Source of the DNA: Planctomycetota bacterium
GTDB taxonomy: Bacteria; Planctomycetota; B15-G4
Direction of reading: 5' to 3'
DNA length: 64,000 nt
Assembly (NCBI GenBank): GCA_965248575.1
Contig: CBDFJQ010000002.1
Location: 1,367,574-1,431,573, forward strand
The notes under the pieces are model-generated. The model saw nothing but the letters and a program-made list of their open reading frames with translations. It did not search any database and was not told the DNA's origin. Positions 8,116 to 28,603 of the stretch are shown piece after piece. A program made the position numbers and the translations under genes. Numbering within the stretch: the first letter of the stretch is position 1; every line of letters begins with the position of its first letter.

Positions 8116-8129
8116 CAGTCAGGAGCCGA

Positions 8130-11032: not shown

Positions 11033-11231
11033 AAGATCAGTTGCTTGCTGCTGGGATCGTCTTTCGGTTTCGAATCGCCTCGTATGTTCGCGCGCATGTC
11101 CTGCTTGGCACTCTTCTCCGCCCACGAGACACCGCCTGTCCGGAGACGCTTGCAGACGGCATGCACGCACTCGCCTCCATTCCAAAAGCGTCGCAAAACA
11201 CGGCTTTGAACGGCCTTGAGGCACGCAATGA

Positions 11232-11304
11232 AGCTAGCGACGGGACTCGAACCCACAACATCCGGTTTACAAAACCGGTGCTCTACCAGTTGAGCTACGC
11301 TAGC
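11232..11304 (-). tRNA. tRNA-Thr (anticodon TGT)
   Basis: Reverse complement GCTAGCGTAGCTCAACTGGTAGAGCACCGGTTTTGTAAACCGGATGTTGTGGGTTCGAGTCCCGTCGCTAGCT; anticodon loop TTTGTAA; CCA not encoded. It completes the thrU-tyrU-glyT-thrT-tuf arrangement. Confidence 0.8.
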
Positions 11305-11356
11305 GCCGGAGCGCCTCCCGACACGCAACTTTCGCGCACCGAGAAAACGGAGGATC

Positions 11357-11824: not shown

Positions 11825-11933
11825 GACACCACGGCCGCAGGGGCGAATCCAATTCCCGAACGGAACGGCCCTAGGGCTCCAAACCCCGCGGTCTGCCCTG
11901 CTAGGATGCCCGGCCCAATCAGAGGAGTCCCTC

Positions 11934-15347: not shown

Positions 15348-16844
15348 GTGCGGACCGGGAGACATCGACAATTCTGGTGGCACCCGGCTGGCGCGGGTGC
15401 CCTTTTCATGCTCTTGCTGGGCGGGTGTTCTTCCCTGCCTGAGCTGGACTGGAATCCGCTCATCCGCATCGAGCACACGCCGGATGGATCCGTCGAGATC
15501 GAGGCCCTGGGCCCGCTGATCGACATCCGTGAGGGCCCCGAAGGGACCTCCCACGCCCTGCGCCCGCTCTACCAGCACAAGGCCAACTTCGGCAAGCCGA
15601 TCACCGATTTCCTGGCGCCCTTCGGCCGGCGCTTCGTCACGGCCGACGCGACCCGCTGGCGCTTCTGGCCCCTCGTCTGGTCGGGTGAAACGCGCGACAG
15701 TCCCGAAGGTGCCGAGTGGGATGCGGTCCTGCTGCCCCTGATCTTCACCGGCGGCGGCCCGCGCCAGGGCGATGGCTACTTTGCCCTCTTCCCGTTGGGC
15801 GGGCGCATTCGCAACATCTTCGGCCTCGAGACCTTCGATTTCTTCCTCTGGCCCTTCTTCATGCGCACGCGCATGGACATCGACGAGCAATCCACCTCGT
15901 GGACGGTCTTGCTGGGCGGCGGCTGGACCACCGGCGGCCCCCGCGACGACAGCTGGCGGGCCCTGCCCTTCTACCGGCACCGCATCGTGCGCCATGTCGA
16001 CGGGACCCTGCGCACCGATCAACGCAGCGCGCTCTGGCCCATCTTCACTTGGGGGCTGGACCACGGCGACAGCGCCGACCCTTCCATGCGCTTTTCCGCC
16101 TGGCCGCTGTTCGGCCGCGAAGCGGGGGAGAGCTGGTCTCGAACCACCGTGCTGTGGCCCTTCTTCCGCGTGAACCGCGAGACAGAAGAGGCCGGCGGTG
16201 ACTACCTCTACGACCTTCCGTGGCCGCTGGTACGCGTCTCCAAGGACGAGAAGAAGTCGGTCACGCGCGTCTTCCCCTTCTACAGCCACCAGGTGAGTGA
16301 GGACTTGGACTCCCTCACGCTGCTCTACCTGTATTGGGACCGGGCCAGCACCGGCCGGACCTCCGACGAGGGCTGGCCGCCGCGGAACTACGAACGCCAG
16401 GACACCTACCTGTTTCCCTTCTGGCACAACTCTCACCGCACCGTGTCCGGGCGCGAGGGGGCCGACGTCCAACATCAACTTTGGCCGCTCTTTCACCGCG
16501 ACGCCGACGCACGCGGACGTCGGGATGCCGCCTTCCTTTCCCTGGTACCGACGCGTCACTTCGAATTCCTGCGCCCCGTCGACGAGCTCTACTCGTTCTT
16601 GTGGACCCTCTGGCGTTCGCGCTCGGACGGCACCAGCCACGAGACGCGCTTCCTCTTCGACACGGTTCTTTATCGCGAGTCCCCGGAAGGTCTCAGAATC
16701 TCGGTTCCCTTCCTCTATTCTCGGCGCCCAGACTCCGCAGGCCTCGACAAGCACCAGATCCTCTGGGGCCTGCTGGGCGCGGGAACGGACGCAGACGGTC
16801 TAGCCGAACTCAGCTTGGCGGGGTGGACGCTTTGGGCACGCTAA
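15348..16844 (+). CDS. Tryptophan-rich repeat lipoprotein of unknown function (signal peptide plus lipobox LLGGC)
   Basis: N-terminus MRTGRHRQFWWHPAGAGALFMLLLGGCSS is a lipoprotein signal. The body carries about eight degenerate copies of a (L/F)WP(L/F)(F/V) motif spaced 25-30 aa apart. Strong GC3 coding bias on this strand. Its 3' end overlaps the mlaE start. Confidence 0.6.
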   Translation: MRTGRHRQFWWHPAGAGALFMLLLGGCSSLPELDWNPLIRIEHTPDGSVEIEALGPLIDIREGPEGTSHALRPLYQHKANFGKPITDFLAPFGRRFVTADATRWRFWPLVWSGETRDSPEGAEWDAVLLPLIFTGGGPRQGDGYFALFPLGGRIRNIFGLETFDFFLWPFFMRTRMDIDEQSTSWTVLLGGGWTTGGPRDDSWRALPFYRHRIVRHVDGTLRTDQRSALWPIFTWGLDHGDSADPSMRFSAWPLFGREAGESWSRTTVLWPFFRVNRETEEAGGDYLYDLPWPLVRVSKDEKKSVTRVFPFYSHQVSEDLDSLTLLYLYWDRASTGRTSDEGWPPRNYERQDTYLFPFWHNSHRTVSGREGADVQHQLWPLFHRDADARGRRDAAFLSLVPTRHFEFLRPVDELYSFLWTLWRSRSDGTSHETRFLFDTVLYRESPEGLRISVPFLYSRRPDSAGLDKHQILWGLLGAGTDADGLAELSLAGWTLWAR

Positions 16845-17644
16845 AGACAACTCTCGAGTCTCGCGGCCGCGCGATTCGGGAGACGGTCACCGAAGCGGGC
16901 TTCGCCGTCACGATCCTGCTGCGCAGTGCCCAGCGCATCGTGCCCGACCTGCGGCACCGCTCGCGCTTCACCCTGGACCAGCTGGCGGTCTGTGGCATCT
17001 CGCCCCTGCCCGTGGTCTGCGTCGTGGGTCTCTTCACCGGCATGCTGCTCGCGCTGCAGGTCGGCATGGAGCTCTCGAAGGTCGGTCAGTCGGAAGCCAT
17101 CGCCAACATGCTCGGCGTGATCCTGTTCCGCGAGATGGGCCCCTTCATGACGTCCATGATCCTCACGGCCAGCGTCGGCAGCGCCATGGCGGCCGAGATC
17201 GGGACCATGCGCGTCTCCGAGGAGATCGACGCGCTGGAGTGCATGTCCGTCGACCCCATCTCCTTCCTGGTCATGCCGCGCATCATCGCCATGGCCATCA
17301 TGACGCCCATCCTCACCTTCATCGGCTGCATCCTGGGCTGCATCGGCGGCGGCATCGTGGCCAAGACGCAGCTGTCCGTCTCCGCCTCCGTCTACCTGCG
17401 CAACCTGCTCAGCTCGCTCGAGGCGGAGCCCAACAGCCTGGGCCCGTTCCCCGAGGAGATCTACACGGGGCTGATCAAGTCCGTGGTCTTCGGCGTGCTC
17501 GTAGCGACCATCAGCTGTGCGGCCGGACTCAAGGCAAGCGGTGGCGCCATCGGAGTGGGCCGCTGTGTCCGCACCGCCGTCGTGCGCTGCTTCCTGATGC
17601 TGATCATCATCGGCTACTACATCTCCTGGATGTTCTTCAAGTGA
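16823..17644 (+). CDS. mlaE: Phospholipid ABC transporter permease MlaE family
   Basis: In-frame GTG at 16823 begins VDALGTLKTTLESRGRAIRETVTEAGFAVTILLRSAQRI.... The 273-aa multi-TM protein has the MlaE/YrbE signature ...EMGPFMTSMILTASVGSAMAAEIGTMRVSEEIDALE.... The upstream part of ORF 16334..17644 overlaps the lipoprotein gene and is not coding. Confidence 0.8.
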   Translation: MDALGTLKTTLESRGRAIRETVTEAGFAVTILLRSAQRIVPDLRHRSRFTLDQLAVCGISPLPVVCVVGLFTGMLLALQVGMELSKVGQSEAIANMLGVILFREMGPFMTSMILTASVGSAMAAEIGTMRVSEEIDALECMSVDPISFLVMPRIIAMAIMTPILTFIGCILGCIGGGIVAKTQLSVSASVYLRNLLSSLEAEPNSLGPFPEEIYTGLIKSVVFGVLVATISCAAGLKASGGAIGVGRCVRTAVVRCFLMLIIIGYYISWMFFK

Positions 17645-18393
17645 TCCAACTCGAGAACGTTCACAAGTCCTTTGGCGATCTGCACATCTTGCGCGGCGTC
17701 GACCTCACCCTCGAAAGTGGCGAGACGCTCGTGGTCCTGGGCCTCTCGGGCACGGGCAAGAGCGTCACCTTGAAGCACATGGTGGGCTTGCTGAAACCCG
17801 ATTCGGGGCGCATCACCGTGGACGGCGTGGACGTACCCACCGCGAACGGTGAGCAGCTGCGGGATATCCGCCGCAAGGTCGCCTACCTCTTCCAGACGGG
17901 TGCGCTCGTGAACTGGATGAGCGTCCGCGACAACGTGTCCCTGCCGCTGGTTGAGAAGCGCTCGCTGCCCCCTGGCGAGATCCGTGAGCGCGTAGACGAA
18001 TCGCTGCAGTCGCTCGACATGTTGGAGGCGGCCGAGCGCATGCCGGCCGAGATCTCCGGCGGCATGCGCAAGCGAGCGGCCCTGGCCAGGGTGCTCGTCG
18101 CCCAACCCAAGGCCATCCTCTACGACGAACCCACCGCGGGCCTCGACCCCATCATGGCGCGCACCGTGGGCCACCTCATCCGGGACGTCCAATCGTCCGG
18201 TGATCGCACCGCCATGGTGGTCACGCACGACCTCGAACTCGCCTTCGCGGTCGCCACCCGCATCGGGCTCCACTTCGAGGGCCAGCTCATCGAGCTCGCG
18301 CCCCCGGACGAATTCAAGCAGAGCAGTCACCCCATCATCCGCGCCTTCCTCGACGGCAGCACCACCGTCGAGGGGGAGGGACTCAAGAAGTGA
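17641..18393 (+). CDS. mlaF: Phospholipid ABC transporter ATP-binding protein MlaF family
   Basis: GTG at 17641 overlapping the mlaE stop (GTGA). VIQLENVHKSFGDLHILRGVDLTLESGETLVVLGLSGTGKSV (Walker A), LSGGMRKRAALARVL (signature), ILYDEPTAGLD (Walker B). Confidence 0.85.
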   Translation: MIQLENVHKSFGDLHILRGVDLTLESGETLVVLGLSGTGKSVTLKHMVGLLKPDSGRITVDGVDVPTANGEQLRDIRRKVAYLFQTGALVNWMSVRDNVSLPLVEKRSLPPGEIRERVDESLQSLDMLEAAERMPAEISGGMRKRAALARVLVAQPKAILYDEPTAGLDPIMARTVGHLIRDVQSSGDRTAMVVTHDLELAFAVATRIGLHFEGQLIELAPPDEFKQSSHPIIRAFLDGSTTVEGEGLKK

Positions 18394-19604
18394 AGAACCG
18401 CAACAACGACGCAATCCTGGGCATCGTGTTCTTTGGCGCCTTGATCGGCCTGGGCGTCATGACGATCGTGCTCTCAGACTTTGCCCTCGGCGCGGAGACC
18501 TTCCGCGTGAAGGTCTACGCCACCGACATCGGCTACCTGCGAGCAGGCGACCCTATCCTTCTGCATGGCATGGCCGCCGGCAAGGTGGAGGAGATCAACC
18601 GGCTCCCGCAGCCGCTGCTCATCGCCGAGCCCCACGACTCCAGCGGCGCGAGCCCAGGCGAGGCCAACTGCACGGTGGAGGTTCAGCTGAAGATGGAGGT
18701 GGACCCCTATCTCTACCTGCGCCAGGACTACGACATCCTGATCGAGGACCTGGGCCTGCTGGGCGGCAAGATGGTGCGCATGGTCGTGGGGAGAGCAGAC
18801 GTCTTCATCCCCAAAGGCCAACAGCTCTACGCCTTGGCCCCCCCGTCGGCCGTCCAGGCTGCCAGCGAGATCCTCGAAGAGAACCGGGCCGACATCCGGG
18901 ACGCCATCGCCCAGATCAACGAGTTTGCCGAGAAGGCGAACCGGGGTGAGGGCACCCTGGGCCTGCTCATGAATGACGCCGAGACGCGGGCGCGCATCGA
19001 GGGCATCATCGACGACATCACCACGGTGGGCGATAGCCTGACCAACGGCGAGGGGACCATGGGCAAGCTGCTCAACGACAGCGCACCCTTCGACGACTTG
19101 AAGGTGGCCATGGCCGATGCTCGCAGCTTCACTGACCGCATCCGCAAGGGTGAAGGCACCGTGGGCAAGATGATCCAGGACGACACCATCTACGAGGACA
19201 TCCGTTCGCTGACAGAAGAGGCGCGGACAGGGCTCTCAGGCATCTGGGATGGCGAAGGAACCCTGGGCAAGCTGATCAACGACGACGCCCTCTACGCACA
19301 GGCCGAAGAGTTCATGGCGGATCTGCTCGAGATTGCCGAGAAGGTCTCCGACGGCGAGGGCACGCTCGGCCGTCTGCTCAATGACGCCCAGCTCTACGAT
19401 GACGTGGTGGCCTTCGTGAACGATGCGAGGGTCGTGTTCAGCGATCTGCGCGATGGCAAGGGGCTTGTGGCCGCGCTCATCAACGACGAAGAGCTACTCG
19501 ACGACTTCCGCTCCATCCTGAGCCAGGTGCTTGGGGCCATCGAGGACGCCCGGGAAACGACGCCCGTCACCAGCCTCGGATCCTTCCTGTTCGGCACCTT
19601 CTAG
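18390..19604 (+). CDS. mlaD: MCE-domain protein MlaD family with a long C-terminal tandem-repeat region
   Basis: GTG start overlapping the mlaF stop. N-terminal TM (AILGIVFFGALIGLGVMTIVL) then an MCE domain. C-terminal 185 aa consists of about six ~30-35-aa repeats centred on G-E-G-T-[LMV]-G-[KRL]-L-[LIM]-N/Q-D. Confidence 0.8.
   Translation: MKNRNNDAILGIVFFGALIGLGVMTIVLSDFALGAETFRVKVYATDIGYLRAGDPILLHGMAAGKVEEINRLPQPLLIAEPHDSSGASPGEANCTVEVQLKMEVDPYLYLRQDYDILIEDLGLLGGKMVRMVVGRADVFIPKGQQLYALAPPSAVQAASEILEENRADIRDAIAQINEFAEKANRGEGTLGLLMNDAETRARIEGIIDDITTVGDSLTNGEGTMGKLLNDSAPFDDLKVAMADARSFTDRIRKGEGTVGKMIQDDTIYEDIRSLTEEARTGLSGIWDGEGTLGKLINDDALYAQAEEFMADLLEIAEKVSDGEGTLGRLLNDAQLYDDVVAFVNDARVVFSDLRDGKGLVAALINDEELLDDFRSILSQVLGAIEDARETTPVTSLGSFLFGTF
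18945..19510 (+). repeat. In-frame coding tandem repeats (6 copies, about 90-105 nt each) inside mlaD
   Basis: Protein-level repeats: NRGEGTLGLLMNDAE / TNGEGTMGKLLNDSAPFDD / RKGEGTVGKMIQDDTIYED / WDGEGTLGKLINDDALYAQ / SDGEGTLGRLLNDAQLYDD / RDGKGLVAALINDEELLDD. Confidence 0.7.
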
Positions 19605-19608: not shown

Positions 19609-21033
19609 TCAGGCCTCGCCAGCGGTGGACAGCAAGCCGATGTAGCGTCGGAAACGCTGCAGCAGCAATTGCGGCCGGCGCAGCTCGCGCATGATGCGCG
19701 AGGGGCGCATGTAGAAGCTCCGGTAGGCCCGGCGGATGGCTGCGGACACCTGCTCGCTGCTCATGACCTTGGCCACACCCACAGGCGTGGTGCCCGTGAA
19801 CTTGTCGAAGTCGAACTCGTCCTCCTGCTCGGCCCGGCTCTCCTTGTAGAGCTTTGTGTCCGGGTACGGCGTCACCACCGTGAACTGGACGGTGTCGGGG
19901 TCGAGGTAGATCGCCAGGTCGATGGTCTCACGTGCCATCGCCGGGGTCTCCTCCGGGAAGCCGATCATGAAGAAGCCGCGCGTGGCAATGCCATGCTTCT
20001 TACAGGACTCCATGACGACCTTGGCGTGCTCGTGGCTCTTGATCTTGCCGCGGCTGTACTTCTTCTGCAGCCCTTCGTTGCCGGCCTCGATGCCGAAGGA
20101 GACCGAGACGCAGCCGCCGCGCGCCATGGCGGCGATGAGCTCGTCGTCCATGGTCTTGATGGCCGTCTCACACTGCCAGAGCACGCCGAGCTTTGCCTGT
20201 TCCAGCATGGCGCTCAGCTCGATGACGCGGTCGCGGTCGTAGGCAAACAAGGGGTCCCGGAACACGATGTTGGTCACACCTTGCTCGTGAACGATTTGTT
20301 TCAGCTCGTCGAACACATTGACGGCTGATCGGCCACGCCACGGAATGCCCTGCGCAACCACGTACCCGCAGTACGTGCAGTTGATGGGGCAACCCCGGGA
20401 GGACTGCACCGTCTGGATGGGCCCCTCCATCGTGGGGATGCGGTACGGCTCCACGGGCAACAGTGCGCGCGAAGGGAAGGGCAAGGCATCCAAGGCGTCA
20501 CCGCGCAACAGCGGGCGGTCCGGGTTGCTGCTGGCCCCGCTCCCACGACGCACCGTCAGGCCATCCACGGCCAGGGGGTCCTCCCCCGCCTCAAGAGCCT
20601 TGAGCATCTGCTCAATGGTCAGCTCCGGCTCGCCGCGCACCACCGCGTCCACCTGCGAACCCGCCATGGCCAGGTCCGGCACCTTGCTGCCCTGGCTGCC
20701 CGTGATGCAGACCACGCTGTCCGGGGACACCTCTTTGATGCGATCGACCAACGCCAGATCCAGCGAGATGGTCGCGCTGGACGTCGCCAGGACCACCAAC
20801 GGCGAGGGGTGGGCCGCCAGTGCCTCCAGCACCACGCTGTCGTCCGATCCGTCCGCCTCGGCGTCCACGACGCTGGCCTGGTGACCCGCCCGCTCCACGA
20901 TGGCCGCCACGTAGAGCAGGTCCAGGGGCGGATAACAGAGCCCTTCACCCACGACCATGCCAAAACCGCCCATGAGCCCTCGGCTCACGCGCTGACTAGG
21001 AGGTGGTGGTGGATTGACGAGCAAGACGTGCAT
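19609..21033 (-). CDS. Cobalamin-binding (class B) radical SAM enzyme
   Basis: N-terminal B12-binding Rossmann-like domain (MHVLLVNPPPP...LLYVAAIVERAGHQASVVD...), then the radical SAM core with the CxxxCxxC cluster motif (SSRGCPINCTYCG) and GGCVSVSFGIE. 474 aa. Confidence 0.85.
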   Translation of the reverse strand: MHVLLVNPPPPPSQRVSRGLMGGFGMVVGEGLCYPPLDLLYVAAIVERAGHQASVVDAEADGSDDSVVLEALAAHPSPLVVLATSSATISLDLALVDRIKEVSPDSVVCITGSQGSKVPDLAMAGSQVDAVVRGEPELTIEQMLKALEAGEDPLAVDGLTVRRGSGASSNPDRPLLRGDALDALPFPSRALLPVEPYRIPTMEGPIQTVQSSRGCPINCTYCGYVVAQGIPWRGRSAVNVFDELKQIVHEQGVTNIVFRDPLFAYDRDRVIELSAMLEQAKLGVLWQCETAIKTMDDELIAAMARGGCVSVSFGIEAGNEGLQKKYSRGKIKSHEHAKVVMESCKKHGIATRGFFMIGFPEETPAMARETIDLAIYLDPDTVQFTVVTPYPDTKLYKESRAEQEDEFDFDKFTGTTPVGVAKVMSSEQVSAAIRRAYRSFYMRPSRIMRELRRPQLLLQRFRRYIGLLSTAGEA

Positions 21034-21200: not shown

Positions 21201-24200
21201 TTGGACGGAGAGGAGCCGGGCCAGCAAAGCGATCTGCTGGACGACTCCGCGCAAGCCACCTTGAACGACTCACATCGGGCCTCAGCGAGGCCCTTTTTCC
21301 ATTTCGCCGGCGCAGCGACGCTTCTGACCCTCGTGGCCCTGGCCGCCGTGGTCGTGGAGCCCAGCGAGGCCCCGACGTCCTCGTCCGCAGGCATCAACTC
21401 GAGCGCAGCCTTGGCACTTGGCTCTGCAGGCGCAGCCTCAGAACGACCTGGGCTGGAGTTGCCCTCGGACGGTGACCAGGCTCGCAACACCCGGCTGGAG
21501 TTGTTTGACCGGAAGCCTAGCCAAAGCGTGCCGCTGCTCGTGGACGACCCTCAGCTTGGCGCCGAGCTGACGGGCAAGGAACAGAAGAAGCTGAACAAGC
21601 TGGCCAAGAAGTGGGCCAAGACAGGCGGAAAGATCGCCAAGAAGGAAGCGCTCGTGGTTCAGCGCATTGGCGAACTCGCCGCCGCTCAGGCCGCCCTCGT
21701 CGCAGCCAATGCCCTCCCGGACGGAACGCCTGAAGAGCTGACCCAGAAGGCGAAGGCCATCAAGAAGGCCGAGAAGAAGCTGCTCAAGGCACAAAAGAAG
21801 CTGCTCAAGGCACAGACCAAGTTGGTGGGCCTCAACTCCAAGCTCACGGCCTTTGTCGCGGCCATCGATGAGGTCGACCCTGGCTACTTCGAGAGCCAGA
21901 CGGGCCCCCCACCGGAGCCCGATCCGGACCCGACGGGCGAGCCGGACCCCGACCCCGCCACCAACCCCGGACCCGACTTCCAAGGCGCCGGCGTGCCCAC
22001 CCTGCCCGTCTTCGTGCAGGAAGCCCGGCCGAGCAACGGCACGGGGGTCACCCGCGCTGGAGACATCGCCACCTTCGGCATCCCATTCTCCGAGGGAGAC
22101 GTCGGCATCAAGTCGGGCCGCCCCGCCTTGGCCGTGTCCGGTGCGGACTCGTTTCAGTTCCGCACGCTGAAACTCTGGCCCGACGGCAGCGTCCAGTGGG
22201 CGCTCTGCGACCTGCAGACAGATGTCACCGCCGGCGTCATCAGCCAAGGTCTCGTGGTGCTGGGTGGCGACGGCCAATCGGTCCAAGCCAACCTCGCTGA
22301 CGAGAACGGCAGCTCAATCCAGATCGACACCGGCCCGCTGCAGGCGACAGTCCTCAAGACCACGTTCAACTTCCTCGACAGCGTCACCGTCGACGGGACG
22401 CTGCTGGTCGACGGCCCCAGCGGCCGTGGCCTCACGGGGCGGGCACCCAACGGCGACCTGCTGGTCCCAGCCCTGACGACTGTCACGCTGGAAGAGAATG
22501 GCCCCACCCGCGCCATGATCCGCGTGGACGGCACGATGGTGGACCCCGGCGCCGTGAAGTTTGTCGACTTCACCTTGCGCATCGTGGCACGCCGCGGCTC
22601 GCGCGACCTGGAAACGCAGCTCACGGTTCGCAACGCCAACATCGCTCGCCCCCAACACGCGGTGATCGAGTCCCTGGAGCTCTCCGTCGAGAGTCTGCTC
22701 GGGAGCAGTTCTAGCTCGGTGCGCATGGCCGGGCACGCTGGTGAGCACACCGGCATCCTGCTGTCGTCCCTGGACGCACACCTCTACCTGGCCCACACGG
22801 CCACCAACCAGGCGGGGCTGGGCGGGGCGCAGTATGTCCCCCACCTCCCCAACGTCAGCTCGGGGAGCAAGACGTTCACGCAGGAAGGCTACGAGGCCGC
22901 CATCGCCGGCTCCACGCTGCAGTCCCTGGGTAACGAGAACCTCTACCCCGAGCACGGATGGATCGACCTCACTGGCCCGAACGGCGGCGTGACGGTCGGC
23001 ATCCGACAGGCCCCGTACATGTACCCGGTCTCGCTCGAGGCGTACGGTTCGGGCAAGGTCACGGCGGGCATGTTCAGCTCACACAACCCGGCCGACTTCA
23101 CCTTCAGCTGGCAGCAGCACGAAAGCCGTTCGGCGGTGTTCTCGTTCCACACCGGAGTCGCAGCTGACCCCGAGGCTGTCGTGCGCCGGCTGGACTACCC
23201 CGTCGTAGGCCGCTTCGCGGACTACAAGGACTACGACCGCGCGGGCGTCTTTCCGTACCGCCTGCTCACCAAGCAAGAGCAGGAGGAAGCCCTCTCGCTG
23301 ATGGGCATCAACCACAACATCAGCGTGGGCAACAACACCTTCCTCGTCACCAAGTACCTCTACAAGGGGACGACCGGCGGCACGAACAACCACGCGGGCA
23401 TCGAGCTGCACCTCGGCGGCGATTGGTTGCGGCATGGCACAGGCGGCCAATACCTCTCCGCAATGAATCTGGCCCTCTACAAGTCGGAGTGGCAAGTCGC
23501 TCGTTCGGACAACTTCGAGGACGAAGATGATCCGGGCGCCAGCAACGACCAGGTCCCCCACAGCGTGGGCTTCCAGAGTGACGACGAACATCGCTACCGC
23601 GATGGCATGATCCTGGCGTACCACCTCACGGGTGACCGACGCCTGCGCGAAGCCCTCTACGACGAGGCCGAGGTCCTGCAGAGCGTGTCACTCTGGCCCC
23701 ATGAGCGCTCGATGTACCAGACGCTGCGTGCCATGGGCCTGGTGGCGGAGTTCACGGGCGACCCAGCCCTGATCCCCACGCTGCGCGCACGCCTTCAGTA
23801 CATCACGCAACCCACGGTCAACGTCAACACGGCGAGCAGCGGTTGGGGTTGGGAAACCAGTCAGGACGTGGGCCAACGCCGCTACTTCGTCAACAGCTCG
23901 GACAACAAGAACGAGAAGCCGCCGGGGGAGAACTTCCAGTGCCGGGGCTTCATCTCCGCCAGCCTCGGGCCGCTCGGCTACTTCCACGCCGCACGCTTCT
24001 TCGCCTCCAATGACCCTGACGGCATGGCAGCCAGGGGCCGCATGCGCGACCTCTCCTACTGGGCGCGGGAAGAAATCTTCAGCAACGACCCCAACCCGGT
24101 GAATCGCCGCCTCATGTACTCGTACGCCGTGACGCAGCAACAGGTGACGAACTGGGAGAACGTCGACTTCCATCCGATCTTGTTGGGCATGGCGGAGAGC

Positions 24201-24350
24201 TACCTGGACACCACCGACATCGTCTATCTGCTGCGCGGCGCCGACCAGCTCGAATCCGCGCAGGCGCACGGCGATCTCTACCGCTGGAACACGCGCATGG
24301 ACTGCCAGCACTTCCTCGCCATCTACCGCGACTGGGCCCTCTCCCTCTAG
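21201..24350 (+). CDS. Large (1049 aa) membrane-anchored or secreted protein of unknown function (possible polysaccharide-modifying enzyme)
   Basis: N-terminal hydrophobic anchor (FFHFAGAATLLTLVALAAVVV), a Lys-rich coiled-coil (KKLNKLAKKWAKTGGKIAKKEA...KKAEKKLLKAQKKLLKAQTKLVGL), an acidic Pro-rich linker (PPPEPDPDPTGEPDPDPATNPGPD), then an ~800-aa globular region. GC3 bias is consistent with coding. The exact start is uncertain. Confidence 0.55.
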   Translation: MDGEEPGQQSDLLDDSAQATLNDSHRASARPFFHFAGAATLLTLVALAAVVVEPSEAPTSSSAGINSSAALALGSAGAASERPGLELPSDGDQARNTRLELFDRKPSQSVPLLVDDPQLGAELTGKEQKKLNKLAKKWAKTGGKIAKKEALVVQRIGELAAAQAALVAANALPDGTPEELTQKAKAIKKAEKKLLKAQKKLLKAQTKLVGLNSKLTAFVAAIDEVDPGYFESQTGPPPEPDPDPTGEPDPDPATNPGPDFQGAGVPTLPVFVQEARPSNGTGVTRAGDIATFGIPFSEGDVGIKSGRPALAVSGADSFQFRTLKLWPDGSVQWALCDLQTDVTAGVISQGLVVLGGDGQSVQANLADENGSSIQIDTGPLQATVLKTTFNFLDSVTVDGTLLVDGPSGRGLTGRAPNGDLLVPALTTVTLEENGPTRAMIRVDGTMVDPGAVKFVDFTLRIVARRGSRDLETQLTVRNANIARPQHAVIESLELSVESLLGSSSSSVRMAGHAGEHTGILLSSLDAHLYLAHTATNQAGLGGAQYVPHLPNVSSGSKTFTQEGYEAAIAGSTLQSLGNENLYPEHGWIDLTGPNGGVTVGIRQAPYMYPVSLEAYGSGKVTAGMFSSHNPADFTFSWQQHESRSAVFSFHTGVAADPEAVVRRLDYPVVGRFADYKDYDRAGVFPYRLLTKQEQEEALSLMGINHNISVGNNTFLVTKYLYKGTTGGTNNHAGIELHLGGDWLRHGTGGQYLSAMNLALYKSEWQVARSDNFEDEDDPGASNDQVPHSVGFQSDDEHRYRDGMILAYHLTGDRRLREALYDEAEVLQSVSLWPHERSMYQTLRAMGLVAEFTGDPALIPTLRARLQYITQPTVNVNTASSGWGWETSQDVGQRRYFVNSSDNKNEKPPGENFQCRGFISASLGPLGYFHAARFFASNDPDGMAARGRMRDLSYWAREEIFSNDPNPVNRRLMYSYAVTQQQVTNWENVDFHPILLGMAESYLDTTDIVYLLRGADQLESAQAHGDLYRWNTRMDCQHFLAIYRDWALSL

Positions 24351-25084
24351 GCGCCGCCATCGGCCTCGAGGGGCTTGCGCAACACGCCGTAGAGCGAGAC
24401 ACCAAAGGGCAGGTCCAGCCGCTTCTCGATGGCGATCTCTGTGCGAGTGATGAGCCCTGCCAGCCACTCGGCAGGCGCAGGCATGGGCACCGCGAAGTCC
24501 GACGTGGCTTCCTCAGGCGGTGTGGGCGAGAGCCCGCGCAATTTGCGCAGCGCCCAGACCGGAGGGAAGAGCGCCATCGAGCTGTAGCTCATGCGCTCCG
24601 TGACGAAGCCCGCTTGCTCGAGCCGCCCCCGCAGTTGCGGGCGGCGGTAGCGTCGATGGTGGTGATAGGCCTCATCGTGAGGGCTCCACAAGGCCATGAA
24701 GGCGGGGACCGTGGCGACCAGGACGCCACCGGGGCGCAGCACCCGGTAAACCTCGCGCATGGCCGCCACGTCGTCCTCGAAGTGCTCGAAGGCATCCAGC
24801 GCCAACACCACATCGAAGCCGGCTTTGCGGAAGGGAAGCTCGAGCGCATCCCCTCGGACGATGCGATCGATCCCTCGCTCCCCGCACAGTCGGATCGTCT
24901 CCTCGGAGATGTCGATCCCCCTGATCTCTCCGTAGTCGGCGAGAAAACGGAAGCTCATGCCCGTGGCGCAGGCGAGGTCCAGGATCTGTAGCGGCCCCTG
25001 ACGGGTCACGTAACGGTCCAAGGCCGCGCGCACGAGGGCCCGCCGTCCTTGGTACCACCAATGAGTTTCCTCAATGGCGAACAT
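24347..25084 (-). CDS. Class I SAM-dependent methyltransferase
   Basis: ORF 24347..25345; likely start MFAIEETHWWYQGRR (ATG complement 25082-25084). Motif I ILDLACATGM and a post-I acidic residue GIDISEE. 245 aa. Its stop overlaps the stop of the convergent 21201..24350 gene (CTAG). Confidence 0.8.
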   Translation of the reverse strand: MFAIEETHWWYQGRRALVRAALDRYVTRQGPLQILDLACATGMSFRFLADYGEIRGIDISEETIRLCGERGIDRIVRGDALELPFRKAGFDVVLALDAFEHFEDDVAAMREVYRVLRPGGVLVATVPAFMALWSPHDEAYHHHRRYRRPQLRGRLEQAGFVTERMSYSSMALFPPVWALRKLRGLSPTPPEEATSDFAVPMPAPAEWLAGLITRTEIAIEKRLDLPFGVSLYGVLRKPLEADGGA

Positions 25085-25104
25085 GCGATCGAACTCGGCA
25101 GTGT

Positions 25105-26304
25105 TCACGGGGTGCCGTGTGCTCCACCGGGGCCAGCTACTCTGCCGTCCGACGCCGGTGCTTCCCCATCGGTGGTGCTCTTGTTGCGGGGGTCCACGGG
25201 GCCTCCATGCTTCTCCATGGCGATGATCTTGCGGGTGACCGCGATCATGAACAGGAAGCCACCAGCGAAGATCAGGTAACGGTAGGGGGCGCTGGTCTGG
25301 CGCGCCAGGATCCCGAGGTACGCGATGATCAACGCCAGGCCCCACAGGATCACGACGGCCTCTGCGCTGCTGAACCCACCTCGCACCAAGCGATGGCTCA
25401 GGTGGTGGCAGTCACCCAGGTACACCGGCCGCTTCTCCTTGATCCGCATGAAGACCACGAAGGCCGCATCGAAGAGCGGAATGCCCATGAACAAGACGGC
25501 GGGGATCAGGTGGCTGGCGCCGAAGTCGTGACTGCCAACGCCCATGAAGCCCTTGACCAGGTCGAACTGCACCCACGCCATCCAGAACCCGATGAACATG
25601 CTGCCCGTGTCGCCCAGGAAGACCCGGCTGCGCGGAAAGTTGTAGGGCATGAAGCCCAGGACGGCGGCGAGCAGCACGACGGCCACGGTCATGGACCTGT
25701 AGCTGTCCGTGTTGGACATGTAGAGGATGGCCGCCGCGAAGGAGATGACCGACAGACCGGACATCAGACCGTTCATGTTGTCCGAGAAGTTGAAGCTGTT
25801 GACGATGGTCAGATACCAACCCAGGAAGAAGAGCTGGTAGAGCCATTGCTCTGGACTCCCGCCGCCTGAGATCAGGTCTCTCAAAGTCGGCAGCATGAGC
25901 ACGAGCACGCCCACGATCTGCCCCAACAGCTTGGGCTCGAAGCCCATGGAGTCCTTGAAGATGTCGTCAACCAGCCCGATCAGGAAGATGACGATGCTGC
26001 CCGCTATCACGAAGCTGATGACGGAGAAGCGTAGTCCTTCATCACCCAGCTGGGACTCGGATTGGGTCCAGACCACGGCCAGGCCCGCCATGACGCCGCA
26101 GACGACACCCAGCCCGCCCAGCAAGGGGGTCACCTTCTCGTGGGTCTTGCGGCCCCCAGGCTTGTCCACGATCCCAAAGCGCCGTGCCAGGACGAGGAAG
26201 AGCGGAACGGTGACAAGAGCCACCGCAAGAGCCGCGCCAAAGCCCAAGGCAGCAATCCGAAGAACGGGTTCGTCGAACAAGGAGGAGGTGTCCCGGAAGT
26301 CCAA
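25105..26304 (-). CDS. Polyprenyl-phosphate N-acetylhexosamine-1-phosphate transferase (GT4/MraY-WecA family; initiating transferase)
   Basis: 11-TM protein with WecA/MraY signatures: GIVDKPGGRKTHEKVTPLLGGLG, LIGLVDD, NSFNFSDNMNGL, VFLGDTGSMFIGF. 399 aa. Confidence 0.85.
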   Translation of the reverse strand: MDFRDTSSLFDEPVLRIAALGFGAALAVALVTVPLFLVLARRFGIVDKPGGRKTHEKVTPLLGGLGVVCGVMAGLAVVWTQSESQLGDEGLRFSVISFVIAGSIVIFLIGLVDDIFKDSMGFEPKLLGQIVGVLVLMLPTLRDLISGGGSPEQWLYQLFFLGWYLTIVNSFNFSDNMNGLMSGLSVISFAAAILYMSNTDSYRSMTVAVVLLAAVLGFMPYNFPRSRVFLGDTGSMFIGFWMAWVQFDLVKGFMGVGSHDFGASHLIPAVLFMGIPLFDAAFVVFMRIKEKRPVYLGDCHHLSHRLVRGGFSSAEAVVILWGLALIIAYLGILARQTSAPYRYLIFAGGFLFMIAVTRKIIAMEKHGGPVDPRNKSTTDGEAPASDGRVAGPGGAHGTP

Positions 26305-26373: not shown

Positions 26374-27444
26374 CTACGTTCTCAAATTCAGACCGCGGCG
26401 GCCAAACCAACGAAAGACGCCATCCACCTCGCACATCACCTCGGACAGATCGCTGTCTTCATTCACCGCGATGCGCTTGAGGTCCAGCAGGGGCGTGGCG
26501 GCGTCATTCAGTCCAGGCATGGCAGTCGTCGAGCTGCGAAAGCCCAGCTCTTCGAGGATCGAGCGCGTCTCCTCGTTGTAGTCCCATGTCCTGCCGTAGG
26601 GATAGGCGAAGGACGCGATGCTGTGGCCCAACCAGGATTCCAGGTCGCGCAGTGAGCCCTCGATCTCCAGGCGCTGCTGCGTGGCATCCAGCGACGAAAG
26701 AATCAGGTGGTTCACGGTGTGGGCTCCGATCTCCACCCCTGCCTTGTCCAGAGCCCGACACTCATCCGGGCCGAGATAGACATGGCTCGCCAGCTCGGCA
26801 TCCACCCCCCCCAGGTCCGAGAAGATACGCGCCAGGATGGTGTCCCGCTCCTTGGGCGTGACCTCGTACTTCAGCAGGCGTTTCATCTCGTACTCGGCGG
26901 CAACGTCATCCTTGGGCAGGCTTCGCAGGTCCTCTCGCAGATGTTGCTTGTCCACCTGCTGGGCGAGACGCTCGGCGAGGTCGTGTGCCCCTCCCAAGTG
27001 CAGTGCCCAGAAGTAATGATGGAGCCAGTTGAGACGCCCCTTCATGGGACCGGTCTGAACGTAGATCGTCGCCGTAGCCCCCATGGACTGGAGCAGGGGC
27101 AGCAAGACGTCGTGGTTGTCGAGGTAGCCGTCATCGAAGGTCAGCACCACCGCATCGGAAGGCACGGCCCCCGATTGCAACTCGTCCACCATCTGGTCCA
27201 CGGTGCACGTTCGATAACCAGCCGCCTGAAGCATGCGTAGCAGGCGCCGCAACTTGGCCTCACTGATCTTCATGTGCCCTGGCAGATAATCCGTCTCCGC
27301 GGGGCTGCCCACGTTGTGGAACATGAGGATGGGCACTCCCTCCCGCGACGCCCGGAACAGCGACCTCAAGCCCGTCAGGTGGAAGGCCTTGGCCACGAAG
27401 GTGGAGAGCCAACGCTTGAGTGTGTGTTTCATCGAGTTCTGCAT
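26374..27444 (-). CDS. Polysaccharide deacetylase family protein (carbohydrate esterase 4)
   Basis: ORF 26374..27987; likely start MQNSMKHTLKRW (ATG complement 27442-27444; the upstream 180 codons overlap the next gene and look non-coding). Motifs ILMFHNVG, LTFDDGYLDNHDVLLPLL, GAHTVNHLIL. Confidence 0.8.
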   Translation of the reverse strand: MQNSMKHTLKRWLSTFVAKAFHLTGLRSLFRASREGVPILMFHNVGSPAETDYLPGHMKISEAKLRRLLRMLQAAGYRTCTVDQMVDELQSGAVPSDAVVLTFDDGYLDNHDVLLPLLQSMGATATIYVQTGPMKGRLNWLHHYFWALHLGGAHDLAERLAQQVDKQHLREDLRSLPKDDVAAEYEMKRLLKYEVTPKERDTILARIFSDLGGVDAELASHVYLGPDECRALDKAGVEIGAHTVNHLILSSLDATQQRLEIEGSLRDLESWLGHSIASFAYPYGRTWDYNEETRSILEELGFRSSTTAMPGLNDAATPLLDLKRIAVNEDSDLSEVMCEVDGVFRWFGRRGLNLRT

Positions 27445-27475: not shown

Positions 27476-28603
27476 TCAGGCGGACAGATGTTCGGCGTCC
27501 CGGTCACCATCGGCCAGATGCCAGCGGGAGATGTCGCCATCCTCCGGACGAGCATCCTTGCGACAAGCACGCACGATGAATGGGAAACGATCCCTGAACA
27601 GTTTACTGCCCGAGGGCTCAGGCCAGCCGAGCTCTCGCAAGGTGGCGGCTGCTGGGTGGTGTAGAAAACAGAGGGCCGTGGCCTCCAGCATCCCGCGTGC
27701 ATGGCCCATGGCGGTGAAGGCCAGCAGCAGCTCCCGTCGAGCCGCCTCGTCCCGGGCGACGTGATCCACAAGGAAGGCATTGCCACCGTGGAACTCCACG
27801 ACGAGCAGGCCGTCGAGCCGCGCAGCCCGCGCCCCGCCCGCTGCTGCCGACACAGCCTCGCCAGGGGCGGGCAACACGTAGCACTCCTGGCGGCCGCTTG
27901 GGGTGTCCACGTAGCGCCAGTTGAGCCAAGCCGCGTCGCGCTCCCCCACCAGCCCCTGGCAGGGCATGGCCGCTTCGCAGAGCTCATCGACGGATTCGGT
28001 CAATCCAACGACCCCATCGAAGCGAGCGACCCGGGTCAGGGGAGAGTGCCAAGCCTCGAATCTCTTGCGATCCCGCCGAAAGCGCCAGCCATCCAGGAGC
28101 GGCGCCAACTGCGCAGCCAGTGGCGCCACGCGCCCCAGTCGACGCAACCCCCGCTCGCTGCGATACCCGTAGCGGAACACGGAGGCTTGTCCGATGTCTT
28201 CCCAGCCGTTGCCCAGGAAGCCCGTGTAGGAGAGACGCCCTGAATAAGCGAACACCCACGGGATGCCCATCTCCCCGGCGGCCTCACACACGATGTCATC
28301 CAGCCCCGTGAAGATGCCCTGCCGTCGGGCCTCCGGAGCGACCATGGCATCGGAAGCCTGCATCAGGAGCAGGGGCTGGCCGTCCCGCCGGAATCTCCGC
28401 GGCACATAGCTGTAGGCACCCACCACCTTTCCCCGCCCGTCCACGGCCACACGCGAGATGGCCGGACCATGGGGGTTCTTTGCATACTTCCAGTCGAAGG
28501 TGTCGACCTGCTTGTCCTTCCGGAAGCAAGCGTTGAACAGCCGACACTGGTCCTCGCGGTCAGCCGCACCGGCCTCGCGCCAGGTCCAGGGGCGTTCGCT
28601 CAT
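27476..28603 (-). CDS. GNAT/FemAB-like acyltransferase (Acetyltransf_6-type, common in EPS loci)
   Basis: ORF 27476..28693; likely start MSERPWTWREAGAADREDQCRLFNACF... (ATG complement 28601-28603, overlapping the upstream gene stop as ATGA). Pattern FDWKYAKNP...VAVDGRGKVVGAYSYVPRRF resembles the BioF2/FemAB-like GNAT fold. Tentative. Confidence 0.5.
   Translation of the reverse strand: MSERPWTWREAGAADREDQCRLFNACFRKDKQVDTFDWKYAKNPHGPAISRVAVDGRGKVVGAYSYVPRRFRRDGQPLLLMQASDAMVAPEARRQGIFTGLDDIVCEAAGEMGIPWVFAYSGRLSYTGFLGNGWEDIGQASVFRYGYRSERGLRRLGRVAPLAAQLAPLLDGWRFRRDRKRFEAWHSPLTRVARFDGVVGLTESVDELCEAAMPCQGLVGERDAAWLNWRYVDTPSGRQECYVLPAPGEAVSAAAGGARAARLDGLLVVEFHGGNAFLVDHVARDEAARRELLLAFTAMGHARGMLEATALCFLHHPAAATLRELGWPEPSGSKLFRDRFPFIVRACRKDARPEDGDISRWHLADGDRDAEHLSA

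Follow-up and report, generated by a model that had tools for sequence, protein, structure and literature searches.

A Planctomycetota bacterium (assembly GCA_965248575.1, contig CBDFJQ010000002.1) carries, within the 64,000-nucleotide stretch analysed here (the window), two genes for radical SAM proteins with B12-binding domains close to a set of glycan genes. What chemistry these enzymes perform, and on what, is the question that the locus raises. The preliminary description had read both as cobalamin-dependent enzymes embedded in a polysaccharide locus, which would make two distinct radical modifications of the repeat unit (C-methyl branches, for example) and, together with a conventional methyltransferase, produce a heavily methylated or alkylated polymer.

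Three radical SAM paralogues and a glycan locus

Two intact copies were claimed, and two are present: the open reading frames at 19609..21033 (rSAM-A) and 31177..32634 (rSAM-B), both on the minus strand, carry the motifs CPINCTYC and CPFRCVFC and have GC3 values of 0.87 and 0.89 respectively (codon-position GC; the window has 65% GC), as in real genes. The pairing of a Rossmann-type B12-binding domain with a radical SAM core is likewise borne out by profile searches, in which PF04055 (Radical_SAM) matches rSAM-A at 64.7 bits (E 1.5e-17; Pfam cutoff 29.5) and rSAM-B at 94.2 bits, and the B12-binding domain PF02310 (Pfam cutoff 32.1) matches rSAM-B at 71.7 bits (E 6e-20) and rSAM-A, marginally, at 37.3 bits; the Rossmann-type B12-binding fold is also confirmed in the predicted AF2 models of rSAM-A (pLDDT 89.5) and rSAM-B (pLDDT 88.6). 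The cluster cysteines, C215/C219/C222 in rSAM-A and C209/C213/C216 in rSAM-B, show no variation in either family (43 of 43 members each). For rSAM-A the 474-aa start is preferable to the shorter database gene call (454 aa): 38 of 43 relatives conserve residues 1-20, which the AF2 model places in strand beta-1; for rSAM-B, the start is most likely the ATG one codon downstream of the called start, at 32631. Judged by sequence, both proteins are new members of the radical SAM superfamily, each intact and with a B12-binding domain. They are distant paralogues (27% identity, E 5e-36) that fall in two separate uncharacterised orthogroups, both restricted to Planctomycetota.

A third paralogue, at 28600..29829, is homologous to rSAM-A and rSAM-B across both domains, with the CxxxCxxC loop deleted, and is nearer to the rSAM-A family than to the rSAM-B family (hhalign 98.5% and 97.6%, respectively). 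The motif is absent from this protein and from 10 of 10 full-length orthologues, and dN/dS values of 0.25-0.36 point to purifying selection. This paralogue is probably a non-catalytic partner or substrate-binding subunit, and is thus a candidate case of a radical SAM scaffold retained for a non-catalytic role.

The rSAM genes sit in a locus of about 30 kb, whose gene set is that of a Wzx-dependent, polyprenyl-phosphate-linked glycan pathway with WecA-like priming. It comprises a PF00953 WecA-like transferase, a CE4 deacetylase, a GNAT acyltransferase, six GT4 enzymes, a Wzx flippase, a PMT_2-like GT-C protein, sulfatase-family membrane proteins and an SDR:

19609..21033, minus strand: rSAM-A, radical SAM protein with B12-binding-type domain, 474 aa, CPINCTYC (Pfam, AF2, PDB match)
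21201..24350, plus strand: signal-anchored protein, 1049 aa, weak PcRGLX-like lyase domains
24347..25108, minus strand: SAM-dependent methyltransferase (Methyltransf_11), last gene of the operon (Pfam)
25105..26304, minus strand: polyprenyl-phosphate HexNAc-1-P transferase (PF00953), about nine TM segments (Pfam, NCBIfam)
26374..27444, minus strand: CE4 polysaccharide deacetylase, about 356 aa, no TM segment (conserved rSAM-B partner)
27476..28603, minus strand: GNAT acyltransferase, N-terminal Acetyltransf_9 domain plus about 250 aa (conserved rSAM-B partner)
28600..29829, minus strand: cluster-less pseudo-radical-SAM protein, 409 aa, third paralogue (hhalign, orthologues, dN/dS)
29843..31096, minus strand: GT4 glycosyltransferase
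31177..32634, minus strand: rSAM-B, B12-binding radical SAM protein, 485 aa, CPFRCVFC (Pfam, motifs, operon position)
32652..34100, minus strand: Wzx-type flippase, Polysacc_synt / MATE-like (Pfam)
34097..35374, minus strand: GT4 glycosyltransferase
35326..37176, minus strand: polytopic PMT_2-like (GT-C type) membrane protein, candidate polymerase, ligase or periplasmic glycosyltransferase
37177..38802, minus strand: GT4 glycosyltransferase, longest ORF given; true start probably downstream of 38370
38370..40595, minus strand: membrane-anchored sulfatase-family protein, 741 aa, four N-terminal TM segments, candidate phospho-substituent transferase or hydrolase
40699..43857, plus strand: 1052-aa protein, about 11 TM segments, C-terminal sulfatase-family domain
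45888..46934, minus strand: GT4 gene, distal end of the locus
46916..48196, minus strand: GT4 gene, distal end of the locus
48189..49115, minus strand: NAD-dependent epimerase/dehydratase (SDR), distal end of the locus

rSAM-B lies inside the operon, 17 nt past the wzx stop and 80 nt ahead of a GT4 gene, with 4-nt overlaps among the genes downstream; the start of the methyltransferase, whose Methyltransf_11 match agrees with its earlier description as a conventional SAM enzyme, overlaps the wecA-like stop by 4 nt. rSAM-A, flanked by MlaD and the PcRGLX-like protein, is convergent with mlaD across a 4-nt gap and divergent from its neighbour on the other side, and is therefore monocistronic, a separate transcription unit; the 21201..24350 protein which parts it from the operon is not conserved between lineages. 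The best NCBIfam match of the PF00953 transferase is WecA, at 118 bits (cutoff 326). A PDB search yields no relative of the GNAT protein (best E 0.032), and no Pfam match covers its remainder of about 250 aa beyond Acetyltransf_9. Neither a TM segment nor a classical signal peptide was found in CE4 or GNAT by hydropathy scan, which, crude as such a scan is, would be consistent with action beside a cytoplasmic rSAM enzyme; many CE4 enzymes work outside the cytoplasm.

Cobalamin-binding motifs and the nearest characterised enzymes

Base-off cobalamin binding is marked by GxSxL after beta-3, GG on beta-4 and GE where alpha-5 begins, together with some 11-14 residues in the beta1-alpha1 loop, and rSAM-B has the GxSxL, GG and GE that bind base-off cobalamin in MgmA, OxsB, TsrM, TokK and CysS (PMC9204698). 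In the family alignment G75, S77 and L79 are kept in 43, 36 and 32 of 43 members, G105-G106 in all 43, G129 in 40 and E130 in 43; the beta1-alpha1 loop spans about 13 residues in the model. On these motifs, rSAM-B is most likely cobalamin-dependent, in line with the preliminary description, which had extended this dependence to both proteins. rSAM-A keeps the motifs in part only: S85 alone is left of GxSxL, beta-4 has a single glycine (G112, 43/43) and no GG, G134-E135 is present (36/43 and 43/43), and the beta1-alpha1 loop runs to about 29 residues. Given the retained GE, the one beta-4 glycine and the invariant serine, rSAM-A may bind cobalamin after all; a PF02310 match is in itself insufficient for cobalamin use, because the Rossmann-related domain of AprD4 binds none (PMC12931638). 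We considered the long beta1-alpha1 loop of rSAM-A (R..GGxG..PPLDL) as an AprD4-specific anti-cobalamin trait and rejected it, as 42 neighbouring cluster representatives share the long N-terminal segment and AprD4 stands lower in rank than all 150 of the listed rSAM-A relatives. Elsewhere in the window, a CobC-like gene (152.5 bits; cutoff 162.9) and BtuC/BtuD-like genes (60634..63915) suggest that the organism handles corrinoids. No cobalamin riboswitch reaches the Rfam gathering score within the window, where only six tRNAs do so.

All similarities of rSAM-A and rSAM-B to characterised enzymes are remote, at no more than 200 bits against cutoffs of 480-580. The top NCBIfam models for rSAM-A are HpnJ (198.5 bits; cutoff 577.6), AprD4 (170.4; cutoff 500) and BchE (151.4; cutoff 481), and for rSAM-B they are BchE (172.3; cutoff 481), HpnJ (162.8; cutoff 577.6) and ApyD (161). 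Both proteins fall below the cutoff of every curated family, and their best-scoring characterised relatives are non-methylases; non-methylase models are also the top scorers throughout both families (43 members each), and the methylase models HpnR, PhpK, KedN5, TsrM, MgmA and RiPP C-methyltransferases all give 136 bits or less. The methylation of the repeat unit proposed in the preliminary description is thus not supported by these comparisons, and C-methyl branched sugars become one possibility among several.

Among solved structures, rSAM-A comes closest to AprD4 (PDB 6FD2), the radical SAM 1,2-diol dehydratase of the apramycin pathway, both in sequence (E 1.5e-40, core residues 179-397) and, for the predicted model, in fold (TM 0.80/0.83, whole length); the best rSAM-A-family member matches the AprD4 model NF033070 at E 6.9e-58 (n=43), and rSAM-B itself at 97.9 bits. 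AprD4 shares with rSAM-A the two-domain layout and the long beta1-alpha1 loop carrying GGxG...PPLDL, but lacks GG, GE and GxSxL at the aligned positions, where rSAM-A keeps GE, one glycine and one serine. AprD4, which has a Rossmann-related domain yet binds no cobalamin (PMC12931638), dehydrates the glucosamine ring of paromamine (3',4'-diol dehydration; PMC5461906), a ring made by GlcNAc transfer and deacetylation. Its substrate is a soluble pseudodisaccharide antibiotic, whereas the locus of rSAM-A is that of an envelope glycan, and no AprD3-type NADPH-dependent reductase is adjacent to rSAM-A, the sole SDR of the locus lying 27 kb off at 48189..49115. AprD4 moreover ranks beneath all of the cluster representatives, at least 150, listed as rSAM-A relatives, and 'AprD4-like' therefore describes the fold of rSAM-A, not its family membership.

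HpnJ, a hopanoid-associated radical SAM enzyme, is proposed to contract a ring, converting BHT-glucosamine to the cyclitol ether; in the hopanoid route the GlcNAc attached by HpnI loses its acetyl group to HpnK, and the resulting glucosamine ring is contracted by HpnJ (PMC13459092). The order of GlcNAc transferase, deacetylase and radical SAM enzyme is paralleled here by WecA/GT4, CE4 and rSAM. HpnK and CE4 come from different families, and the chemistry and cobalamin use of HpnJ are known from genetics only. BchE, the cobalamin-dependent anaerobic Mg-protoporphyrin IX monomethyl ester cyclase, has a class B architecture like that of rSAM-B, but the rSAM-B locus has no pigment pathway context. 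The predicted structure of rSAM-B superposes about equally on six solved enzymes, namely MgmA (9CCB), OxsB (5UL4), TsrM (6WTF), TokK (7KDY), CysS (9N1B) and AprD4 (TM 0.62-0.70), a sign of a generic class B scaffold. The first five have 17-22% sequence identity to rSAM-B and act on peptides, nucleotides, carbapenems or tryptophan rather than glycans, and the C-terminal cap domain of the TokK/OxsB type is missing from rSAM-B (485 aa against 660-730 aa).

Probable radical tailoring of an amino sugar and its alternatives

Gene order in the window (Wzx, rSAM-B, GT4, GNAT, CE4, WecA-like, methyltransferase, opposite-strand gene, rSAM-A) is kept in relatives at 48-83% rSAM-A identity, 83% being the best identity in the species-representative scan. 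The succession of rSAM-B, GNAT and CE4 is kept further, at 47-53% rSAM-B identity, in the GT4-rich loci L087, L088, L090, L092, L094 and L095, and the sulfatase-family genes of the window also recur in related loci. Relatives of rSAM-B at 37% identity or less have no GNAT/CE4/GT4-rich context; a metagenome scan with the rSAM-B family returned mostly such distant relatives (27-37% identity) without glycan context, which we took solely as negative controls of orthogroup specificity. Enzymes of the rSAM-B family turn up repeatedly in GT-rich loci throughout Planctomycetota, and in one such planctomycetal locus a SPASM rSAM accompanies three B12-rSAM genes in tandem. The preliminary description had held enzymes of this kind to be rare in cell-surface glycan loci; their recurrence implies that they are uncharacterised there, not rare. 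Within a limited literature, we found no report of a cobalamin radical SAM enzyme in O-antigen, capsule, EPS or planctomycetal loci, nor of one that acts on a lipid-linked cell-surface glycan. To our knowledge, and in the reviews cited here, characterised enzymes of B12-rSAM architecture have antibiotics, cofactors, peptides, pigments or hopanoids as their targets.

The best explanation overall, which we favour at somewhat better than even, is that rSAM-B, as a cobalamin-type enzyme, and rSAM-A are radical sugar-tailoring enzymes of an amino-sugar glycan. The position of rSAM-B in the operon, and its travelling with GNAT and CE4 down to 47% identity, suggest the de-N-acetylated hexosamine of a lipid-linked intermediate as its substrate. 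In the proposed sequence, the WecA-like and GT4 enzymes would work at the cytoplasmic face and assemble, on the lipid carrier, a repeat unit that contains HexNAc; CE4 would strip off an N-acetyl group and so lay bare a hexosamine; rSAM-B, via the 5'-deoxyadenosyl radical, would alter an unactivated carbon of the exposed amino sugar or of its substituent; and GNAT would put an acyl group back on the amine, before Wzx flips the completed unit. The rSAM enzymes of the locus probably use radical chemistry to modify an amino sugar, methylation being one candidate reaction among others. For rSAM-B, C-methylation appears about as likely as a rearrangement or some other reaction that transfers no methyl group. 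Methylases make up the majority of characterised cobalamin-dependent radical SAM enzymes (bioRxiv 10.64898/2026.04.29.721654; PMC12931638), and methylation accordingly has a strong prior for rSAM-B. rSAM-A is probably a second, non-methylating, radical sugar-tailoring enzyme with a weaker tie to the glycan than rSAM-B; it is read as non-methylating because it is closest to AprD4 and HpnJ, which rework glucosamine rings without methylation, and, being independently transcribed, it could serve another pathway. More tentatively, and with a good deal of doubt, rSAM-B, GNAT and CE4 may form an undescribed module, joined in this lineage by rSAM-A and the pseudo-rSAM, that turns a lipid-linked N-acetylhexosamine into a radically rearranged amino sugar; candidate products would be a contracted ring or a carbocycle, along the lines proposed for HpnJ, a deoxygenated sugar of the AprD4 kind, or a C-alkylated one.

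The weaker tie of rSAM-A leads to an account that we consider improbable, if a serious contender, in which rSAM-A lies outside the glycan pathway as a housekeeping or lipid-related enzyme by the Mla lipid-transport system, and rSAM-B alone belongs to the locus. Its monocistronic layout and the lack of homology across lineages in the gene between it and the operon agree with such a role, as does its distribution. In about 55 of 80 species representatives the rSAM-A homologue (43-45% identity) occurs without the window's glycan genes within 10 kb; in Saltatorellus and Engelhardtia it stands among unrelated genes (the L086 context was checked with Pfam); and GCA_030428395.1 has its rSAM-A homologue (L038) and its rSAM-B-GNAT-CE4 module (L092) on separate contigs. 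Against this, rSAM-A stays beside the methyltransferase/WecA end of the operon where its identity is only 46-48% and the spacer gene has been replaced; its best-scoring relatives, HpnJ and AprD4, both work on glucosamine rings; and the pseudo-rSAM within the operon is nearer to its family than to that of rSAM-B. The preliminary view that both genes are embedded in the polysaccharide locus accordingly stands for rSAM-B, whereas rSAM-A adjoins the locus only in closer relatives. The same description had allowed that BchE/HpnP-type enzymes might merely sit beside sugar genes and be transcribed independently, and in this respect rSAM-A is indeed its own unit, with a homologue that in most related species stands apart from glycan genes, while rSAM-B is in the operon. 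A conserved association of rSAM-A with a large secreted protein and a methyltransferase was also considered and rejected: the window, L002 and L086 carry large proteins without homology to one another, and only a generic fold unites the methyltransferases.

Less probable again, and in our judgement rather unlikely, is that rSAM-A and rSAM-B are both class B C-methyltransferases which place two C-methyl branches on the repeat unit of a polymer heavily methylated with the help of the conventional methyltransferase. GenK, GenD1, Fms7 and MoeK5 are among the class B methyltransferases (PMC12931638). These enzymes provide an antibiotic-pathway precedent for cobalamin-dependent methylation of unactivated sugar carbons. 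GenK and similar class B methylases act on glucosamine-derived rings in aminoglycosides. Methylation being the main reaction of cobalamin-dependent radical SAM enzymes, the B12-binding matches of both proteins above the Pfam cutoff, the three cobalamin-binding motifs of rSAM-B and the corrinoid-related genes of the window are all compatible with this account. It is countered by the profile scores, as rSAM-A scores lower with every methylase model (HpnR, PhpK, Sden_1168, KedN5, TsrM, MgmA and RiPP C-methyltransferases) than with HpnJ, AprD4 and BchE, and no methylase model exceeds BchE, HpnJ or ApyD for rSAM-B. Further, the closest solved relative of rSAM-A, AprD4, is non-methylating and uses no cobalamin (PMC12931638), rSAM-A lacks GxSxL and GG, and no sequence trait peculiar to methylases was found.

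That the two are true BchE or HpnJ orthologues, as some public pipelines label them, is barely credible: BchE and HpnJ are top NCBIfam models and JGI labels some cluster members 'anaerobic magnesium-protoporphyrin IX monomethyl ester cyclase', but scores of 151-198 bits against curated cutoffs of 481 and 578 effectively refute the assignment, only 1 of the 95 nearest rSAM-A cluster representatives comes near HpnJ, and no hpn, squalene-hopene cyclase or bch genes were found among the window genes scanned. The public BchE label on rSAM-B homologues is over-annotation. It is equally far-fetched that the rSAM proteins are anSME-like maturases of the two sulfatase-family proteins, recurrent as the genes for these are: anSMEs carry auxiliary-cluster domains of the SPASM or twitch type and are not known to have a B12-type one, whereas neither rSAM-A nor rSAM-B has a SPASM match (Pfam), the C/S-x-P-x-R target motif was not found in the 741-aa sulfatase-family protein (38370..40595), and the conserved partners of rSAM-B are GNAT and CE4, not a sulfatase.

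Implications for planctomycetal envelope glycans

The locus is at present a well-defined lead. The rSAM-B/GNAT/CE4 module offers an annotation handle for genes that public pipelines now call 'BchE cyclase' or 'YgiQ'. If rSAM-B acts with GNAT and CE4 on a hexosamine, then these genes would constitute a defined, widely conserved system in which to find a new envelope sugar modification, and one that would also help to reveal the role of cobalamin in enzymes of B12-rSAM architecture. If the radical-tailoring module is real, its product would be the first envelope polysaccharide with radical SAM chemistry of the antibiotic or hopanoid type, conserved across a deep branch of Planctomycetota.

Two radical SAM genes at a glycan assembly locus

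The preliminary description of two intact B12-type radical SAM genes, rSAM-A and rSAM-B (A and B), was confirmed. Both are real minus-strand ORFs by codon-position GC, which tells genes from spurious ORFs in this 65% GC window, and both exceed the Pfam cutoffs for the Radical_SAM core (29.5 bits; A 64.7, B 94.2) and for the N-terminal B12-binding domain (32.1 bits; A 37.3, which is marginal, B 71.7). AlphaFold models built on family alignments, which are confident (pLDDT 89.5 for A, 88.6 for B), place a Rossmann domain before a partial TIM barrel and a helical tail. At only 27% identity, the two paralogues go back to an old divergence, not to a recent duplication. In the public record of the identical A protein (P0001, 454 aa), the gene call begins 20 codons inside the ORF; this appears to truncate the protein, since residues 1-20 are kept in 38 of the 43 relatives and make up strand beta-1 in the modelled Rossmann domain. 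The rSAM-B 90% cluster (P0121) includes a 991-aa JGI protein, P0394, on a 19.5 kb contig, which is either a gene-call fusion with its neighbour or a real fusion protein.

Features of the window, by position
8646..11304, minus: five tRNA genes (Rfam) clustered around a 402-aa ORF (9001..10209)
16334..19604, plus: MlaE/MlaF/MlaD-type lipid-transport operon, adjoining rSAM-A convergently with a 4-nt gap
19609..21033, minus: rSAM-A, 474 aa, CPINCTYC
between the methyltransferase gene and rSAM-A, plus: 1049-aa signal-anchored protein with weak PcRGLX-like domains
locus after rSAM-B, minus: GT4, 409-aa protein (28600..29829), GNAT (Acetyltransf_9), CE4 deacetylase, WecA-like polyprenyl-phosphate HexNAc-1-P transferase, Methyltransf_11 methyltransferase
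31177..32634, minus: rSAM-B, 485 aa, CPFRCVFC
locus genes ending in rSAM-B, minus: TM-anchored sulfatase-family protein, GT4, PMT_2-like GT-C protein, GT4, Wzx flippase, rSAM-B
38370..40595, minus: membrane-anchored sulfatase-family protein, 4 predicted TM segments
40699..43857, plus: 1052-aa polytopic sulfatase-family gene (~11 predicted TM segments), interrupting the minus-strand genes
first minus-strand stretch of the locus: SDR epimerase/dehydratase, two GT4, 630-aa protein without family match
50870..50955, minus: further tRNA (Rfam)
51073..57521: acyl-CoA synthetase and ScfR-type regulator (HTH/M78/ScfRs), adjoining malate synthase and isocitrate lyase genes
58347..59750, plus: second MlaD-domain gene
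60634..63915, minus: three adjacent, possibly corrinoid-related genes

The glycan assembly system is encoded at ~19.6 to 49.1 kb, its minus-strand genes separated by 80 nt or less or overlapping by 4 nt. rSAM-B lies inside this operon and rSAM-A outside it; as A is divergent from the 1049-aa gene (167-nt spacer) and convergent with mlaD, it has its own promoter. The proposal that both enzymes are embedded in a polysaccharide locus therefore holds for B and only in part for A, with its separate promoter and the plus-strand gene between. The Mla operon next to A is syntenic in related genomes, and the long C-terminal part of its MlaD contains repeats of G(E/K)GT(L/V)G(K/R)L(L/I)ND-like motifs.

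The C/S-x-P-x-R formylglycine motif is absent from the sulfatase-family protein at 38370..40595, and the membrane-anchored architecture of the two proteins is closer to that of LtaS/EptA-type phospho-substituent transferases than to that of soluble sulfatases. Homologues of the two membrane-anchored sulfatase-family proteins recur in three related planctomycetal loci (L004, L087, L091). Just outside the glycan locus, the genes at 51073..57521 look like a regulated glyoxylate-shunt unit, and the 402-aa ORF is probably EF-Tu, judging from synteny with the related locus L001. Beyond the tRNAs, the Rfam scan of the window returned no family at gathering score.

Family placement and cobalamin binding

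Neither enzyme reaches a curated NCBIfam cutoff. A ranks closest to HpnJ (198/578 bits), AprD4 (170/500) and BchE (151/481), with methylase models at 108 bits or less; B ranks closest to BchE (172 bits), HpnJ (163) and ApyD (161), with no P- or C-methylase model above 136 bits. The best E-values over 43 members of each family fall to the same models (HpnJ, AprD4, BchE for A; BchE, ApyD, HpnJ for B). One of the 95 cluster representatives closest to A comes near HpnJ (E 9e-114, under cutoff), and none matches AprD4 or BchE at that level. AprD4 is the solved structure nearest A (sequence E 1.5e-40; whole-chain TM 0.80/0.83), ahead of cobalamin-bound enzymes (TM 0.64-0.72), yet it scores under all 150 representatives listed, and so serves as the nearest characterised landmark for A without being of its family. 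The model of B fits MgmA, OxsB, AprD4, CysS, TsrM and TokK about equally well, which indicates a generic class B scaffold. Both proteins fit class B by architecture, B also by motifs, and neither belongs to the AprD4, HpnJ or BchE families. Their homologues carry the public labels 'BchE cyclase' and 'YgiQ', both of them over-annotations.

A match to the B12-binding profile does not settle cobalamin use, since AprD4 has a Rossmann-related domain that binds none (PMC12931638). Structures of OxsB, TsrM and TokK define base-off motifs, namely a Gly-x-Ser-x-Leu following beta-3, a Gly-Gly on beta-4 and a Gly-Glu where alpha-5 begins, with 11-14 residues in the beta1-alpha1 loop (PMC9204698). In the B family all of these are present and almost without variation (G75-x-S77-x-L79, G105-G106, G129-E130; loop of ~13 residues), and B probably binds cobalamin. 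Of the motifs, the A family retains no more than an invariant Ser85, one Gly112 and G134-E135, and conservation within its domain peaks in the beta1-alpha1 loop of ~29 residues. In AprD4 the aligned positions carry none of the three cobalamin motifs. The cobalamin-dependent label originally given to both thus probably fits B and may or may not fit A, which retains the motifs in part only. At 60634..63915, a His_Phos_1 protein fused to AAA_28 (152.5/162.9 bits for alpha-ribazole phosphatase CobC, just under cutoff) sits beside a corrinoid/heme-type, BtuD-like ABC ATPase and a BtuC-like FecCD permease, which suggests that the organism handles corrinoids and hints at their salvage or uptake. No cobalamin riboswitch turned up within the window.

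Conserved neighbourhoods and a cluster-less paralogue

Nearly all homologues of A and B are from Planctomycetota metagenome-assembled genomes. Among species-representative genomes, a scan detected a relative of A in 186 species; two cultured ones, Engelhardtia mirabilis Pla133 and Saltatorellus ferox Poly30 (43-44% identity), are among the best 80. An exhaustive search of 1.84 billion cluster representatives returned three clusters at 43% identity to A or more, beyond which scores fall sharply; its orthogroup is small, nested in a very large superfamily (4,961 clusters at E <= 1e-30).

Where A is 46-83% identical, the order Wzx, rSAM-B, GT4, (409-aa gene), GNAT, CE4, WecA-like, methyltransferase is kept, followed by an opposite-strand gene, rSAM-A and opposite-strand MlaD/F/E, with housekeeping genes flanking. 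In the larger species set at 43-45% identity, the A homologue has no counterpart of the window's glycan genes within 10 kb, and in S. ferox it is surrounded by genes for PheRS, a DTW-domain protein, a DUF2807 protein and acetyl-CoA synthetase; in one assembly, the A homologue and the B-GNAT-CE4 module are on different contigs. A is therefore genuinely tied to the glycan locus, but in a limited set of lineages. That A serves a different pathway altogether, and not the glycan, is unlikely though far from negligible.

B homologues at 47-53% identity still lie in GT4-rich loci, followed by GNAT and CE4 in six (L087, L088, L090, L092, L094, L095), with CE4 only in L096 and neither gene within 6 kb in L093, and this persistence indicates that the three genes behave as a conserved module. 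Relatives of B at 37% identity or less lack any GT4-rich, GNAT or CE4 context. The related locus L091 (GCA_964455095.1) has three tandem B12-binding radical SAM genes (500, 447 and 550 aa) and a SPASM radical SAM gene, at 4100..8653 and 10869..11942 of that locus, interleaved with GT4, CE4, methyltransferase, SGNH and sulfatase genes. Together these loci make B12-type radical SAM enzymes recurrent in planctomycetal glycan loci, contrary, in this phylum at least, to their presumed rarity in cell-surface glycan loci. Downstream of B-GNAT-CE4, an opposite-strand set in L087 (14153..18259), L090 (10535..14366) and L092 (6622..10385), comprising a carbamoyltransferase (Carbam_trans_N/C), an SGNH/AlgX-like protein with DUF5989 and small ORFs, suggests that the same glycan is also decorated with O-carbamoyl or O-acetyl groups; the window does not have this set.

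The 409-aa protein has no Pfam or NCBIfam match, and is homologous to A and B over both domains (hhalign with an 11-sequence profile, 98.5% against the A family and 97.6% against the B family). The loop that would bear CxxxCxxC is deleted, and none of 10 full-length orthologues has the motif. The gene, present only in the window's closer relatives, has conserved motifs of its own in 10 related species (PMDDPxRP, GRPGH, AWQRWF, AGCWxNEL) and a dN/dS of 0.25-0.36 (A, 0.15-0.22), so that it is maintained, not decaying. Its product is a candidate non-catalytic 'pseudo-radical-SAM' subunit.

Candidate chemistry on the glycan

Radical SAM chemistry requires SAM and a low-potential reductant, from which we infer that A and B must act in the cytoplasm, before the Wzx flip. 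A crude hydropathy scan found no TM segment or classical signal peptide in CE4 or GNAT. The hopanoid pathway uses HpnI, then HpnK, then HpnJ on a glucosamine ring that originates from GlcNAc, is deacetylated and is then reworked (PMC13459092); the substrate of AprD4 is paromamine (PMC5461906). Both of the top-scoring characterised relatives of A, HpnJ and AprD4, rework a glucosamine ring that entered as GlcNAc and was later deacetylated, a logic paralleled here by the HexNAc-1-P transferase, GT4 enzymes and deacetylase. We accordingly propose a scheme in which CE4 would expose a hexosamine on a lipid-linked intermediate, rSAM-B with cobalamin would modify it, GNAT would re-acylate the amine, and Wzx would flip the finished unit after these cytoplasmic steps.

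Methylation, the reaction first put forward as an example for both enzymes, is the commonest in the cobalamin radical SAM class, and the known non-methylases all catalyse ring formation or rearrangement (bioRxiv 10.64898/2026.04.29.721654). B may methylate, and no sequence feature in it separates methylation from other chemistry, which we consider about equally likely. For A, a non-methylating reaction is favoured. That an amino sugar of a conserved envelope glycan undergoes radical rearrangement is a tentative and rather improbable reading.

The original observation is therefore upheld, and its interpretation supported in part. A and B add two new members to a known superfamily, in a context that has been little explored, and a limited literature search found no paper on such enzymes in envelope glycan loci. 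The conserved rSAM-B-GNAT-CE4 module and the putative pseudo-enzyme paralogue are new details, which make the locus a good lead, with its chemistry a candidate only.
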